Shown here piece by piece: positions 17,602-64,000 of a stretch of DNA of 64,000 bases; positions within the stretch are counted from its first letter, which is position 1; each line of letters starts with the position of its first letter. Origin of the DNA: Escherichia coli (lineage in GTDB: Bacteria; Pseudomonadota; Gammaproteobacteria; Enterobacterales; Enterobacteriaceae); NCBI RefSeq assembly GCF_003018255.1, contig NZ_CP027440.1; one strand, written 5' to 3'. The notes under the pieces are model-generated. The model saw only the letters and a list, made by a program, of their open reading frames with translations, was not told the DNA's origin and did not search any database. Both the position numbers and the translations under genes were made by a program.

Positions 17602-18369
17602 TTAATTGAGCTCCTGTACCCCACCACCGGAGACGGTGAGAATTTGTCCGCTTACCCAGCTGGCTGCAGGCGAGCAAAGGAACAGCGCCGCGTTAGCAAT
17701 ATCTTGCGGTTGGCCCAGACGTCTGATCGGCGTGTGCTGTAACATTTTTTGTTCAATTTCTGGTGTAATAACGGATTTCAGGGCATCGGTTAATATTGCC
17801 CCCGGCGCAATGCCATTCACCCGAATATTTTTTTCACCCAGGTCAAACGCCATATTTCTGACCAGATGACTGGCCGCAGCTTTAGATGATGCATAAGAAG
17901 TCATGTTTATATTTTTATTTTCTGCCGCCATAGAAGTGATGGTCAGAATAACGCCACCGCCATTTTTTTCCATTTCTGGCGCAACAAGTTGTGACAGATG
18001 GAAAAAAGAAAACACATTCAGTTCATAAGCACGGCGAAAATCTGCCATTGGCATATCAAACGGTTTAGGACCACCGCCACCGGCGTTGTTAACCAGGATA
18101 TCAACTTTACCCAGCTTACTGACGGCAAAGTCTGCCAGTGCAGAGAGTTCCTGTTCGGAAGTAATATCACAACGGCAGGCAAATGCCTGACCACCCAGTT
18201 GTTGAATTTCATCAACAACATGGTTAGCTGCGTCGGCGTTAATATCACTGACCACCACAGATGCGCCAGCTGTCGCGAATGTAATGGCAATTTCTTTACC
18301 AATACCTGCACCGGCACCTGTGATGATGGCACATTTTCCGTCGAGTCTCAGGTTGTCAGAATTAAACAC
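17602..18369 (-). CDS. hdhA: 7-alpha-hydroxysteroid dehydrogenase (SDR)
   Basis: 255 aa; GAGAGIG Rossmann motif and SDR catalytic Y-x3-K; recognised HdhA. Confidence 0.92.
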   Translation of the reverse strand: MFNSDNLRLDGKCAIITGAGAGIGKEIAITFATAGASVVVSDINADAANHVVDEIQQLGGQAFACRCDITSEQELSALADFAVSKLGKVDILVNNAGGGGPKPFDMPMADFRRAYELNVFSFFHLSQLVAPEMEKNGGGVILTITSMAAENKNINMTSYASSKAAASHLVRNMAFDLGEKNIRVNGIAPGAILTDALKSVITPEIEQKMLQHTPIRRLGQPQDIANAALFLCSPAASWVSGQILTVSGGGVQELN

Positions 18370-24645: not shown

Positions 24646-24887
24646 GTCATTGCCTCTCATTGAAGTATGATGGCTATTTGACACTATCCTTTACCCTCGC
24701 TCAACAGTTTAATAACCTGCCAGCAATAAGGGATGTTGTTTAACTTAAGTCAAAAAAATAGCGAATTTTCCAACGACAAAAGCTAAATATCGCAAAAACC
24801 TCAGTAAAAATCTTGCTGGAGCTATTATTGCTAAGTAACATTTACCCCCTGAAGTTAATGGATCAATCAACAGAGATGTGGGCTGTA

Positions 24888-26685: not shown

Positions 26686-29382
<2,697 letters not shown>

Positions 29383-33008: not shown

Positions 33009-34511
33009 GTGTCCACTGCAAACCAAAAACCAACTGAAAGCGTCAGTTTGAACGCTTTCAAACAACCGAAGGCGTTCTATCTCATCTTCTCGATTGAGTT
33101 ATGGGAACGTTTTGGTTATTACGGCCTACAAGGAATTATGGCTGTTTACCTGGTTAAACAACTGGGTATGTCTGAAGCGGATTCAATCACCCTTTTCTCT
33201 TCCTTTAGTGCCCTGGTTTATGGTCTGGTCGCTATCGGCGGCTGGTTAGGTGACAAGGTACTGGGTACTAAACGCGTAATTATGCTTGGCGCTATTGTGC
33301 TGGCGATTGGTTATGCTCTGGTTGCCTGGTCTGGTCACGACGCCGGTATCGTTTATATGGGTATGGCGGCTATTGCGGTCGGTAACGGCCTGTTTAAAGC
33401 TAACCCGTCTTCTCTGCTTTCTACATGCTATGAGAAAAACGACCCGCGTCTGGACGGTGCATTCACCATGTACTACATGTCCGTCAACATCGGCTCTTTC
33501 TTCTCTATGATCGCCACCCCGTGGCTGGCCGCGAAATACGGCTGGAGTGTTGCGTTTGCGTTGAGCGTTGTAGGCCTGCTGATCACTATCGTTAACTTCG
33601 CCTTCTGCCAACGCTGGGTTAAACAGTACGGTTCAAAACCAGACTTCGAGCCTATCAACTACCGTAACCTGCTGCTGACCATTATTGGTGTTGTGGCACT
33701 GATCGCTATCGCCACCTGGCTGCTGCACAATCAGGAAGTTGCGCGTATGGCGCTGGGCGTTGTTGCCTTCGGTATTGTGGTTATCTTCGGTAAAGAAGCT
33801 TTCGCGATGAAAGGTGCTGCGCGTCGTAAAATGATCGTTGCCTTCATCCTGATGCTCGAAGCAATCATCTTCTTCGTGCTGTACAGCCAGATGCCAACGT
33901 CACTGAACTTCTTTGCGATTCGTAACGTTGAACACACCATTCTGGGCCTGGCCGTAGAACCTGAGCAGTATCAGGCACTGAACCCGTTCTGGATCATCAT
34001 TGGTAGCCCGATTCTGGCCGCTATCTATAACAAGATGGGCGATACCCTGCCGATGCCAACTAAGTTTGCAATCGGTATGGTGATGTGTTCTGGTGCGTTC
34101 CTGATTCTGCCGCTGGGTGCAAAATTCGCGTCTGACGCAGGTATCGTGTCTGTAAGCTGGCTGGTCGCAAGCTATGGCCTGCAGAGTATCGGGGAACTTA
34201 TGATCTCTGGTCTGGGTCTGGCAATGGTTGCACAACTCGTTCCGCAGCGTCTGATGGGCTTCATTATGGGTAGCTGGTTCCTGACCACTGCCGGTGCAAA
34301 CCTGATTGGTGGTTATGTTGCGGGTATGATGGCTGTGCCGGATAACGTTACCGATCCACTGATGTCACTGGAAGTCTATGGTCGCGTATTCTTGCAGATT
34401 GGTGTCGCTACTGCCGTTATTGCAGTACTGATGCTGCTGACCGCGCCGAAACTGCACCGCATGACGCAGGATGACGCTGCAGACAAAGCGGCGAAAGCAG
34501 CCGTAGCGTAA
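33009..34511 (+). CDS. dtpA: proton-dependent di/tripeptide permease (POT family), GTG start
   Basis: 500 aa; POT/PTR2 motifs; recognised DtpA (TppB/YdgR). Confidence 0.92.
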
Positions 34512-36188: not shown

Positions 36189-37463
36189 TTATTTCCAGCA
36201 AATCAGACAGTAATTCTTTTTGCCGCGACGCAATAAGGTAAAACGACCAAACAGACGATCTTCTTCTTTAAAGAAGTATTCAGGATCGGACTGTTTTTCA
36301 CCGTTAATGGTGATGGCATTGGAGGCGATAGTTTTACGCGCCTGACCACGGGAAGGTTGCAGTTCAGAATCGACCAGCGCCTGCATCAGGTCTGCGCCCT
36401 TCTCCATCTCAACCATCGGTACGCCGTCCTGCGCCAGCTGTTCGAAGTCCGCTTCACTCAGCGCACTCAAGGAACCGCTGAACAGGCATTCGGTAATACG
36501 TTTTGCCGCCTGCAAACCGTCTTCACCATGCACCAGACGTGTCACCTGTTCTGCAAGCACATACTGGGCGCGCGGTGCTTTACCGCTGTTTTTATCTTCT
36601 TCTTCCAGGGCGTTGATCTCTTCAATGCTCATGAAGGTGAAGAACTTCAGGAAGCGGTAAACGTCGGCATCCGCAGTGTTGATCCAGAACTGGTAGAATT
36701 TGTACGGGCTGGTTTTCTTCGGATCCAACCAGACTGCGCCGCCTTCAGTTTTACCAAATTTGGTGCCGTCTGCTTTGGTGATCAGCGGAACGGTCAAGCC
36801 AAACACCTGATTCTGATGCAGACGACGGGTCAGGTCGATACCAGAAGTGATGTTACCCCACTGGTCAGAACCACCGATTTGCAGCACCACACCGTACTGT
36901 TTGTTCAGACAGGCGAAGTCATAACCCTGCAACAGGTTGTAGGAAAACTCAGTGAACGAAATCCCCTGATCTTCACGGTTGAGACGCTGCTTAACCGCTT
37001 CTTTGTTGATCATCTGGTTAACGGAGAAGTGTTTGCCAATATCGCGCAGGAAGGTCAGCACATTCATATTGCCGAACCAGTCATAGTTGTTCGCCGCGAT
37101 AGCAGAGTTTTCTCCACAGTCGAAATCGAGGAACGGGGCAACCTGCTTGCGGATTTTGTCCACCCACTCCTGAACAGTTTCTTCAGTGTTCAGCTTACGC
37201 TCGGCAGCTTTGAAGCTCGGGTCGCCAATCAGACCCGTCGCGCCGCCTACCAGCGCAACCGGCTTGTGGCCCGCCTGCTGGAAGCGTTTCAGGCATAACA
37301 ATGGAACAAGATGCCCCAAATGCAAGCTGTCAGCGGTAGGATCGAAGCCGCAATAGAGCGCGATCGGGCCTTGCGCCAGTCGCTCTGCTAACGCTTCCTC
37401 GTCCGTCACCTGGGCTACCAGCCCCCGCTCTTGCAATTGTTTAATCAAGTTACTGCTTGCCAT
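36189..37463 (-). CDS. tyrS: tyrosyl-tRNA synthetase, 424 aa from ATG at 37463
   Basis: ORF 36189..37475; class I HIGH (HLGH) and KMSKS-type (KFGKT) motifs. Confidence 0.95.
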
Positions 37464-40630: not shown

Positions 40631-41071
40631 TCACCCTTTGGCCTGTAACTCAATGATATTATGCTCAAGTTTTGCGATGAGCTTAATCAGTTGTTCCAGT
40701 TCCTCTGCGGAGATGCCATGTAAAATTTCCGCGCGGGTTTTGTTAATAACAGCTTCCATTTCGCTGATCAGCGGCTCTGCCTTTTCCGTCAGTTTAATAC
40801 GTTTAGCCCGACGATCGCTGGCACAAGTTTGACGCGAAATTAACCCTTTTTCTTCCAGTTGGTCCAGAGTACGGACCAGTGATGGCTGCTCGATGCCAAT
40901 CGCTTTTGCCAGTTGAATTTGCGACTGGTCTGGAGGTAACTGATGGATATTGTGTAACGTAACCCAATGGGTTTGTGTTAACTCCAGCGGTTTCAGGCGA
41001 TGGTCTATCAGAGCACGCCATATGCGCACCAACCGTGCCAGATCAGAACCTAGTGGCGATTCCAATTTCAT
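40631..41071 (-). CDS. slyA: MarR-family transcriptional regulator SlyA
   Basis: ATG-initiated ORF of 146 aa; the commonly annotated 144-aa form would start at TTG 41065. Confidence 0.92.
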
Positions 41072-41265: not shown

Positions 41266-41502
41266 GTGAAGTTTATGCTCAATGCAACAGGATTGCCCTT
41301 ACAAGATCTGGTGTTCGGTGCGTCCGTCTACTTTCCTCCGTTTTTCAAAGCCTTCGCGTTTGGATTCGTCATCTGGCTTGTCGTACACCGCCTGCTTCGT
41401 GGCTGGATCTACGCCGGTGACATCTGGCATCCCTTGTTAATGGATTTATCGCTGTTTGCGATTTGCGTTTGCCTTTCCCTGGCAATACTGATTGCGTGGT
41501 AA
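41266..41502 (+). CDS. ydhI: small inner membrane protein (DUF1656), GTG start
   Basis: 78 aa, two predicted TM segments; first gene of ydhIJK, divergent from slyA. Confidence 0.8.
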
Positions 41503-44976: not shown

Positions 44977-45873
44977 TTACGGTACGTCGTAACCTAGTGC
45001 CGCTTTACGGATACGGAACCATTGTTGACGGGTCATTTTCAGTGTTTCTGCTTCGACTGCTGCCCGTACGCGCTCAATTTTACCTGAGCCGATAATTGGC
45101 AGCGGCTGCGACGGTAAACGTAATACCCAGGCGTAAACCACCTGTTCAATCGAGCCCGCGTTTAACTCCTCTGCCACCACAGCCAGTTCATCACGCAGCG
45201 GCTGGAAATAATCATCATTAAACAGACGACCACCACCAAGGCAGGACCACGCCATCGGACGAACACGCAGTTGTTGCAGTTGGTCGAGCGTGCCATCCAG
45301 CAGTAACGGCTGATGTACCGGGGATATTTCCACCTGATTAGTGGCAAGGGTAAACGGCAGGCGTGATTGCAAAAGCGCAAATTGCACAGGCGTAAAGTTC
45401 GATACGCCAAAATGACGCACTTTGCCGCTCTGATGCAGATGTTTAAACGCGTCCGCCACTTCATCGGCATCCATTAACGGGTCTGGTCGGTGGATTAACA
45501 GCAGATCCAGATGATCGGTCGCGAGATTAATTAGCGACTGTTCGGCGCTCTTAATGATGTGATCGCGGTCAGTGATGTAATGACCAATGACGTTTTCTTC
45601 ACGCGCGGTCGTCGCGATACCGCATTTACTGACGATTTCCATCCGTTCACGCAGGTGAGGTGCCAGTTTCAACGCCTCGCCAAACGCCGCTTCGCACTGA
45701 TAGCCACCATAAATATCAGCATGGTCCACGGTGGTCACGCCGAAATCCAGATGCTCTTCAATAAAACTGACCAGCTGGCGGGCGGACATATTCCAGTCCA
45801 TCAATCGCCAGTAGCCCATCACAAAACGGGAAAACTCCGGGCCTTGCGGCGCAATAGTAATACGCTGAACCAT
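44977..45873 (-). CDS. ydhF: aldo/keto reductase family oxidoreductase
   Basis: 298 aa. Confidence 0.85.
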   Translation of the reverse strand: MVQRITIAPQGPEFSRFVMGYWRLMDWNMSARQLVSFIEEHLDFGVTTVDHADIYGGYQCEAAFGEALKLAPHLRERMEIVSKCGIATTAREENVIGHYITDRDHIIKSAEQSLINLATDHLDLLLIHRPDPLMDADEVADAFKHLHQSGKVRHFGVSNFTPVQFALLQSRLPFTLATNQVEISPVHQPLLLDGTLDQLQQLRVRPMAWSCLGGGRLFNDDYFQPLRDELAVVAEELNAGSIEQVVYAWVLRLPSQPLPIIGSGKIERVRAAVEAETLKMTRQQWFRIRKAALGYDVP

Positions 45874-45921
45874 AATCGCTTCCTCTTATCAGATATGAGA
45901 GGAGTATACGCAAGATTAGGC

Positions 45922-46161
45922 TCAAAAGAGTGATGGTTGCTCCGGTTCGTCTGATGACGCTGGCTTATTTGCGCGTAATTTGCGCATTAATCGCTGCCGA
46001 CAAAGGCGCAGCACCTCTTGTTTTTCGCCATCGCTCATTTTATTCCAGTTAAAACGCTCATCCCGACTACGAAAACAGCCGCGACAAAACCCGCGTTCGT
46101 CAGACTGGCAAATTCCCCGGCACGGGCTCTGGACGGGAAAGAACTCTAATTGCTCCGCCAC
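45922..46161 (-). CDS. ydhL: DUF1289-family Cys-rich small protein, GTG start, 79 aa
   Basis: ORF 45922..46332 is over-extended; GTG at 46161 is preceded by GAGGAGGG SD; CxxxC...CxxC motifs. Confidence 0.75.
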   Translation of the reverse strand: MAEQLEFFPVQSPCRGICQSDERGFCRGCFRSRDERFNWNKMSDGEKQEVLRLCRQRLMRKLRANKPASSDEPEQPSLF

Positions 46162-46233
46162 TTCGCCCTCCTCAAATAAGATTATTACCATTATTGAAGC
46201 TGTTAATGCCCAAAGTAGCAACTTTGCTTGCAC

Positions 46234-46249
46234 TAGACCGACTGGTCTA
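46234..46249. promoter_or_regulatory. NemR operator (NemR box)
   Basis: TAGACC-GACT-GGTCTA inverted repeat 15 bp upstream of nemR ATG. Confidence 0.6.
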
Positions 46250-46263
46250 CTACACTCCAACGC

Positions 46264-46863
46264 ATGAACAAACACACCGAACATGATACTCGCGAACATC
46301 TCCTGGCGACGGGCGAGCAACTTTGCCTGCAACGTGGATTCACCGGGATGGGGCTAAGCGAATTACTAAAAACCGCTGAAGTGCCGAAAGGGTCCTTCTA
46401 TCACTACTTTCGCTCTAAAGAAGCGTTTGGCGTTGCCATGCTTGAGCGCCATTACGCCACATATCACCAACGACTGACTGAGTTGCTGCAATCCGGCGAA
46501 GGTAACTACCGCGACCGCATACTGGCTTATTACCAGCAAACACTGAACCAGTTTTGCCAACATGGAACCATCAGTGGTTGCCTGACAGTAAAACTCTCTG
46601 CCGAAGTGTGCGATCTGTCAGAAGATATGCGTAGCGCGATGGATAAAGGCGCTCGCGGCGTGATCGCCCTGCTCTCGCAGGCGCTGGAAAATGGCCGTGA
46701 TAGCCATTGTTTAACCTTTTGTGGCGAACCGCTGCAACAGGCACAAGTGCTTTACGCACTATGGCTGGGTGCGAATCTGCAGGCCAAAATTTCGCGCAGT
46801 TTCGAGCCACTGGAAAACGCGCTGGCACATGTAAAAACCATTATTGCGACGCCTGCCGTTTAG
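46264..46863 (+). CDS. nemR: TetR-family electrophile-sensing repressor NemR
   Basis: 199 aa; N-terminal TetR HTH; upstream of nemA-gloA. Confidence 0.9.
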   Translation: MNKHTEHDTREHLLATGEQLCLQRGFTGMGLSELLKTAEVPKGSFYHYFRSKEAFGVAMLERHYATYHQRLTELLQSGEGNYRDRILAYYQQTLNQFCQHGTISGCLTVKLSAEVCDLSEDMRSAMDKGARGVIALLSQALENGRDSHCLTFCGEPLQQAQVLYALWLGANLQAKISRSFEPLENALAHVKTIIATPAV

Positions 46864-54676: not shown

Positions 54677-55504
54677 GTGGCGCGGATAAACCGTATTTCG
54701 ATCACGCTCTGTGCTTTACTTTTTACCACCCTGCCTTTAACGCCTATGGCCCATGCTTCAAAGCAAGCCAGGGAGAGTTCTGCTACTACTCATATCACCA
54801 AAAAAGCAGATAAAAAGAAAAGCACGGCAACCACCAAAAAGACCCAGAAAGCCAGCCAGAAAACAGCGAAAAAAGCCGCCAGTAAAAGTACGACCAAAAG
54901 CAAAACCGCTTCTTCCGTTAAAAAATCTTCCATTACCGCTTCTAAAAACGCCAAAACTCGCAGCAAACATGCCGTCAATAAAACGGCCTCAGCCAACTTT
55001 ACCGAAAAGTGTACCAAACGTAAGGGCTATAAATCGCATTGTGTGAAAGTCAAAAATGCCGCGTCAGGAACCCTTGCCGACGCGCACAAAGCGAAGGTGC
55101 AAAAAGCCACGAAAGTGGCAATGAATAAACTGATGCAACAAATTGGTAAGCCATATCGTTGGGGCGGCAGCTCACCGCGTACCGGTTTTGATTGCAGCGG
55201 CCTGGTTTATTACGCTTATAAAGATTTGGTGAAAATTCGTATTCCGCGTACGGCGAATGAAATGTATCACCTGCGTGATGCAGCACCTATCGAACGTAGT
55301 GAACTGAAAAACGGCGACCTGGTCTTCTTCCGTACTCAGGGACGCGGTACAGCCGATCATGTCGGCGTGTATGTCGGCAACGGCAAATTTATTCAGTCAC
55401 CGCGCACGGGCCAAGAAATTCAAATCACTTCTCTCAGTGAAGACTACTGGCAGCGCCACTATGTTGGCGCTCGTCGGGTAATGACCCCAAAAACACTTCG
55501 CTAA
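54677..55504 (+). CDS. mepH: NlpC/P60-family peptidoglycan DD-endopeptidase, GTG start
   Basis: Signal peptide, Lys/Thr/Ser-rich linker, C-terminal NlpC/P60 domain with catalytic Cys (FDCSGLV) and His. Confidence 0.88.
   Translation: MARINRISITLCALLFTTLPLTPMAHASKQARESSATTHITKKADKKKSTATTKKTQKASQKTAKKAASKSTTKSKTASSVKKSSITASKNAKTRSKHAVNKTASANFTEKCTKRKGYKSHCVKVKNAASGTLADAHKAKVQKATKVAMNKLMQQIGKPYRWGGSSPRTGFDCSGLVYYAYKDLVKIRIPRTANEMYHLRDAAPIERSELKNGDLVFFRTQGRGTADHVGVYVGNGKFIQSPRTGQEIQITSLSEDYWQRHYVGARRVMTPKTLR

Positions 55505-63673: not shown

Positions 63674-64000
<327 letters not shown>

Follow-up and report, generated by a model that had tools for sequence, protein, structure and literature searches.

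Over-extension of open reading frames (ORFs) by longest-ORF calling is the well-known reason why gene finders rely on models of the Shine-Dalgarno sequence (SD) and of homology instead of taking the longest ORF, and start codons other than ATG make up roughly 17% of starts genome-wide. Over-extension of this kind, generic in bacteria, appears without difference in the window, the whole 64-kb stretch of Escherichia coli DNA analyzed here, in which 14 of the 60 annotated genes have an in-frame ATG, GTG or TTG between the annotated start and the first upstream stop. The closest described counterpart of the locus of principal interest is ydhL of E. coli K-12 (b1648), which shares with ydhL of the window its GTG start, its SD, its length of 79 amino acids and its protein sequence. 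Three differences between K-12 and the window were identified in the 411 nt of the mechanically called ydhL ORF, one of them silent and within the coding sequence, the other two in the upstream non-coding stretch, and the start is unaffected by any of them. Likewise, slyA of K-12 (b1642), which has been described as having an 'unusual UUG start codon' (PMC5797941), agrees in its start with the TTG at 41065 of the window, no difference being evident.

The window extends from ydgI to mdtK on the E. coli chromosome (~1.680-1.744 Mb of K-12 MG1655) and is colinear over its whole length with the genome of strain DETEC-S792 (98.9-99.65% identity). Of 5,426 complete E. coli genomes, 5,425 contain a match of 95-100% identity to a 2-kb query around ydhL, under which ydhF, ydhL, nemR and nemA are annotated. 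The starts of coding sequences were mapped onto the window from the curated K-12 annotation (NC_000913.3) and from the PGAP annotation of DETEC-S792 (NZ_CP116067.1), and the 60 annotated genes and starts so obtained were the set for all SD and non-ATG counts; in the mechanical ORF list, each ORF begins at the first ATG, GTG or TTG after the upstream stop. For the six genes to which the initial annotation had assigned individual non-ATG starts (ydhL, dtpA, ydhI, mepH, mdtK and slyA), the assigned coordinates and codons are identical to those in both K-12 and PGAP. Several of the K-12 protein records are at versions higher than 1 (ydhL.2, rstA.2, manA.3, ydgJ.4, ydgK.2, slyA.2, ydhJ.4), presumably having been revised by curators over time.

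The starts in question are real, were correctly read, and are already present in the K-12 and RefSeq annotations, mostly with published experimental support; because those annotations already carry them, they constitute no new biology. It is almost certain that ydhL is translated from GTG 46161 to give 79 amino acids, that the 57 codons upstream are non-coding, and that the true starts of the other genes are the curated K-12 ones. For promoter, leader and operator work in the window, the starts to be used are the curated ones, not those of the longest ORFs. The features discussed below are collected in Table 1.

Table 1. Coordinates of start codons and related features in the window, with annotation and published initiation evidence.
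Feature	Position	Strand	Description and evidence
ydhL CDS	45922..46161	-	79 aa + stop, 240 nt; GTG start 46161-46159; K-12 (NP_416165.2) and PGAP identical
ydhL SD GAGGAGGG	46166..46173	-	read from the sequence; spacer to GTG of 4 nt, CGAA
Mechanical ydhL ORF	45922..46332	-	TTG start, 136 aa; in ORF list
In-frame extension of ydhL, 57 codons	46162..46332	-	almost certainly non-coding; ydhL-nemR intergenic region and antisense of nemR codons 1-23
nemR	46264..46863	+	divergent from ydhL; first 23 codons antisense to the presumably spurious ydhL extension
Perfect palindrome TAGACCGACTGGTCTA	46234..46249		ydhL-nemR intergenic region; ends 14 nt before nemR ATG
dtpA GTG start	33009..33011	+	K-12 and PGAP; INRI-seq ~800-1000 RPF, 5/5 replicates; Ribo-RET 120.7 at K-12 1712769 (PMC9825163)
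slyA TTG start	41063..41065	-	K-12 and PGAP; INRI-seq 490-970 RPF (PMC9825163); 11-residue N-terminal peptide (PMC13245402 Table S1)
ydhI GTG start	41266..41268	+	K-12 and PGAP; INRI-seq ~160-190 RPF, Ribo-RET 11.2 (PMC9825163)
mepH GTG start	54677..54679	+	K-12 and PGAP; INRI-seq 39-63 RPF, Ribo-RET 11.2 (PMC9825163)
mdtK GTG start	63695..63697	+	K-12 and PGAP; peptide MQKYISEAR (PMC13245402); INRI-seq 137-185 RPF, Ribo-RET 35.8 (PMC9825163)
hdhA GTG start	18367..18369	-	K-12 and PGAP; N-terminal peptide MFNSDNLR (PMC13245402 Table S1)
mepH CDS	54677..55504	+	275 aa in window and DETEC-S792, 271 aa in K-12
tyrS CDS	~36189..37463	-	putative internal start at K-12 1716367 (PMC13245402)
rsxC internal repeats	28911..29335	+	tandem-like, ~96 nt apart

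Translation start and conservation of ydhL

As read from the DNA, translation of ydhL would proceed by ordinary SD-directed initiation at GTG 46161, read by fMet-tRNA; the SD, 4 nt before the GTG, is predicted to pair with the 3' end of 16S rRNA, and the product would be the 79-aa DUF1289 protein YdhL. The minus strand before the start reads TTGAGGAGGGCGAA-GTG and continues GTG-GCG-GAG-CAA, a configuration that has the elements of canonical SD-led initiation, namely one of the codons ATG, GTG and TTG, a spacer in the range of roughly 4-9 nt, and complementarity to 16S rRNA. The duplex with the 16S 3' end has an energy of -12.7 kcal/mol, the strongest among the 60 annotated starts of the window, which bears out the earlier description of this SD as strong; in the background, -10 kcal/mol is attained by fewer than 1% of start-like triplets, and the nine in-frame candidates upstream of the GTG range from -1.9 to -6.9 kcal/mol.

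The boundaries of the protein family point to the same codon. The Pfam domain DUF1289 (PF06945) matches residues 12-57 of the 79-aa form over profile positions 1-46 of 47, with a score (69.3 bits, E = 2.4e-19) that exceeds the gathering score of 27 bits and so places YdhL in the family. Numbered along the 136-aa form, the match covers residues 69-114, the family domain thus being contained within the 79-aa form, and a Pfam search of the 57-codon extension returned no match. Homologues of YdhL number 421 in a collection of 5.8 billion proteins. Among the 120 representatives listed, 87 are 79 aa long, and in 90 the N-terminus lies 12 residues ahead of the PCxGxC motif, the position that it has in the 79-aa form; most of these 90 begin with M-AEQLEFFP. 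In all of the longer gene calls among the 120, AEQLEFFP directly follows a V, consistent with retention of the GTG, and the listed sequences upstream of this V are wholly unrelated between genera; therefore, conservation of YdhL begins at the GTG codon.

Among ~5,400 E. coli genomes, identity in the extension region does not fall below 96%, and variation within E. coli is therefore unable to exclude a minor longer YdhL isoform; other genera were used instead. Orthologous loci were compared in Salmonella enterica, Klebsiella quasipneumoniae, Citrobacter farmeri, Cronobacter sakazakii, Enterobacter hormaechei and Yokenella regensburgei. All six have a start codon at the ydhL position (GTG in five, ATG in Yokenella) with a GGAGG-like SD a few nucleotides upstream, and all six have an in-frame stop upstream of the start (at codon -4 in Salmonella, -7 in Klebsiella, -5 in Citrobacter, -5 in Cronobacter, -32 in Enterobacter and -9 in Yokenella). 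The aldo-keto reductase gene ydhF follows ydhL in five of the six loci, and a divergent nemR precedes it in four. Across the Enterobacteriaceae, ydhL thus has orthologues that share its length and N-terminus and lie in conserved synteny (nemR or an eptA-like gene, then ydhL, then ydhF), and its GTG occupies a conserved start position at which coding conservation begins.

These stops, 4-9 codons away in five of the six genera, weigh heavily against the proposition that a longer frame is the real gene, encoding a YdhL of 136 aa (from TTG 46332), 125 aa (from ATG 46299) or 89 aa (from ATG 46191) in which the GTG would be an internal valine codon. Such a gene would be compatible with the 57 codons of open frame found in E. 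coli, and some automated pipelines have called versions of 87-125 aa in this species (P0001, P0002, P0052), but the extension has neither sequence conservation nor a domain, the upstream candidates have weak SDs, and the longest forms would need an mRNA whose 5' end lies within nemR, a gene of the opposite strand. Both annotations reject a longer YdhL, the K-12 protein record having reached its second version, and the proposition is regarded as exceedingly improbable. The preference of the initial annotation for 79 over 136 amino acids is sustained by the two annotations, the SD, the Pfam boundary, the break in conservation and the upstream stops and conserved SD and start geometry in six genera, and in vitro initiation profiling supports it further.

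Initiation data and the ydhL-nemR region

Published profiling of E. coli K-12 by INRI-seq, an in vitro retapamulin ribosome profiling of a synthetic transcriptome (PMC9825163 Table S2), gives 55-77 RPF at the annotated ydhL start in five of five replicates; the in vivo Ribo-RET column of the same table has a value of 0 for this start. Initiation at the GTG, which corresponds to K-12 position 1725920, would be expected to yield the tryptic N-terminal peptide (f)MAEQLEFFPVQSPCR, and no YdhL N-terminal peptide occurs in the available rows of Table S1 of a deformylation-assisted N-terminomics study of E. coli K-12 (PMC13245402). Because neither an in vivo initiation signal nor a YdhL N-terminal peptide was found, we only infer that GTG 46161 is the start of YdhL in vivo in E. 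coli. By title or abstract, no paper among the ydhL literature matches listed is on the topic of the E. coli ydhL start site. Many of the listed matches concern Bacillus subtilis, in which ydhL is a synonym of pbuE.

The sole alternative ydhL site in the INRI-seq data is an in-frame ATC 21 nt upstream of the GTG (48.8 RPF; PMC9825163). This peak would be accommodated by dual initiation, in which the GTG gives the main 79-aa YdhL and an upstream in-frame codon gives a minor, E. coli-specific, N-terminally extended proteoform, as would the open frame in E. coli; alternative in-frame starts are known in this species (bioRxiv 10.1101/520783, abstract). However, the ATC peak is confined to one of five replicates and was scored as not identified, initiation at ATC is very poor, and the codon lies in the SD-proximal region, to which footprints belonging to the GTG complex could be wrongly assigned. 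Conservation of the extension is also lacking, and dual initiation is considered very unlikely. No reproducible signal or peptide was found at any upstream in-frame codon of ydhL, within the reach of INRI-seq templates whose sequence ahead of the annotated start is just 30 nt long and which leave candidates farther upstream outside the template; a leader of this length can exclude near alternatives (those of tus, tyrS, slyA, ydgK and ydgI), not distant ones. E. coli, unlike the genera examined, keeps the 57 codons stop-free, and a minor lineage-specific extended YdhL, such as the 89-aa form from ATG 46191, might be made under conditions not yet profiled, a prospect to which we attach very little probability.

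With initiation at GTG 46161, the 57 codons up to TTG 46332 would represent a stop-free non-coding stretch that the mechanical ORF caller has joined to ydhL. The stretch is free of stops in both strains compared, K-12 and that of the window, and both of the differences between them that fall within it change the amino acid in that frame, which, although a very small sample, agrees with the other evidence. The region between ydhL and nemR measures 102 bp and contains the palindrome TAGACCGACTGGTCTA, which we take to be the NemR operator (NemR box); this region is to be treated as non-coding DNA with an operator, not as the N-terminus of YdhL. A scan for sigma-70 promoters over 45850-46450 on both strands gave no match and is uninformative as to whether the ydhL transcript reaches the upstream candidates.

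The annotated nemR start, ATG 46264, is preceded by no SD recognisable by SD scoring (CTACACTCCAACGC-ATG). INRI-seq and Ribo-RET are both negative at this start, and an out-of-frame ATG at +19 was detected in five of five INRI-seq replicates (PMC9825163). A search of the literature for a mapped nemR transcription start yielded nothing usable. A leaderless or very short-leader nemR mRNA would fit these observations.

Start codons of the other genes

The GTG starts that had been assigned to dtpA, ydhI, mepH and mdtK are all positive in both INRI-seq and Ribo-RET, that of mdtK being represented by an N-terminal peptide as well, and the TTG start of slyA, which the initial annotation had called probable, is experimentally supported by an N-terminal peptide and by INRI-seq (Table 1). 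The ATG of slyA at 41071, two codons upstream of the TTG, is not used (SD of -3.4 kcal/mol, versus -9.8 kcal/mol at the TTG). Missing from the earlier list of non-ATG starts was GTG 18369 of hdhA. Altogether, non-ATG starts account for 7 of the 60 in the window (binomial p = 0.39 against the genome-wide rate of ~17%) and are no commoner here than genome-wide. The available rows of the N-terminomics table (PMC13245402) contain no peptides of DtpA, YdhI, MepH, ManA, RstA, Tus, SodC, YdgJ or MalX.

An apparent disagreement over the start of mepH (828 nt in the PGAP annotation versus 816 nt in K-12) was ruled out, the GTG being shared and the lengths differing instead by a 4-aa in-frame indel. The indel consists of the residues QKAS and is located in a low-complexity linker, rich in Lys, Thr and Ser, after the signal sequence.

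Nine genes had been described as having ORFs 5'-over-extended relative to SD-supported starts: manA (by 26 codons), malX (68), rstA (20), tus (4), ydgJ (13), ydgK (8), sodC (17), tyrS (4) and ydhJ (14). According to both annotations all nine are over-extended, but the support from the SD fails for tus, rstA, ydhJ and ydgJ. The remaining over-extended genes of the window are ydhL (57 codons), slyA (2), ydgI (9), blr (25) and cydH (10), the last three of which had not been listed. The SD favors the annotated over the upstream start in malX, ydgK, sodC, slyA, manA, ydgI and ydhL. The annotated start of tus, in contrast, has an SD of -3.5 kcal/mol versus -6.8 kcal/mol for a GTG 4 codons upstream, and the annotated ATG of ydgJ (24645, minus strand) has -5.8 kcal/mol versus -8.9 kcal/mol for an in-frame GTG at 24684, 13 codons upstream; the annotated starts of rstA and ydhJ have SDs of -2.4 and -2.9 kcal/mol, respectively. 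SD energy was accordingly rejected as a universal discriminator of starts, these four genes being the failures. The start of ydhJ lies 3 nt after the stop codon of ydhI, and because of this spacing ydhJ is probably translationally coupled to ydhI.

The published initiation data examined here show no starts at the upstream codons of the extended ORFs, in agreement with the initial annotation. INRI-seq is positive at the annotated starts of tyrS, sodC, ydgJ, malX, manA, tus and rstA, and those of ydgK and ydhJ are negative in INRI-seq and positive in Ribo-RET (PMC9825163); the ATG of tyrS is further represented by a 13-residue N-terminal peptide (PMC13245402 Table S1). In the numbering of the annotated proteins, Pfam matches begin at residue 5 in YdgJ (Rossmann domain), residue 4 in RstA (receiver domain), residue 1 in ManA (catalytic domain), residue 9 in Tus, residue 6 in YdgK, residue 19 in MalX (EIIC) and residue 17 in YdhJ, and after the N-terminal leader in SodC; the matches of all eight therefore begin downstream of the extensions. 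Among the starts that the initial annotation named, that of ydgJ is the least settled: the upstream GTG lies outside the 30-nt INRI-seq leader and the K-12 record has reached a fourth version; both annotations pick the ATG.

The longer ORFs of these genes are almost certainly artefacts of taking the first ATG, GTG or TTG after the upstream stop. A stop-free stretch of 57 codons has a probability of ~0.065 per gene, calculated as (61/64)^57, so that 60 genes should include a few, and in the window two genes, malX and ydhL, have extensions of this length or more. Neither over-extension nor the number of non-ATG starts in the window exceeds chance.

Two further observations concern other coding regions of the window. 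Within tyrS, an N-terminally truncated TyrS of 139 aa, putatively initiated at an internal CTG, has been reported on the basis of a listed 13-residue peptide, for which the table records support from neither Ribo-RET nor INRI-seq (PMC13245402 Table S1). Within rsxC, alignment of DETEC-S792 with the window by BLAST revealed the internal repeats of Table 1, at 87-90% identity, and the gene is 2127 nt long in DETEC-S792 versus 2223 nt in K-12, which suggests that repeat copy number varies within the rsxC coding region.
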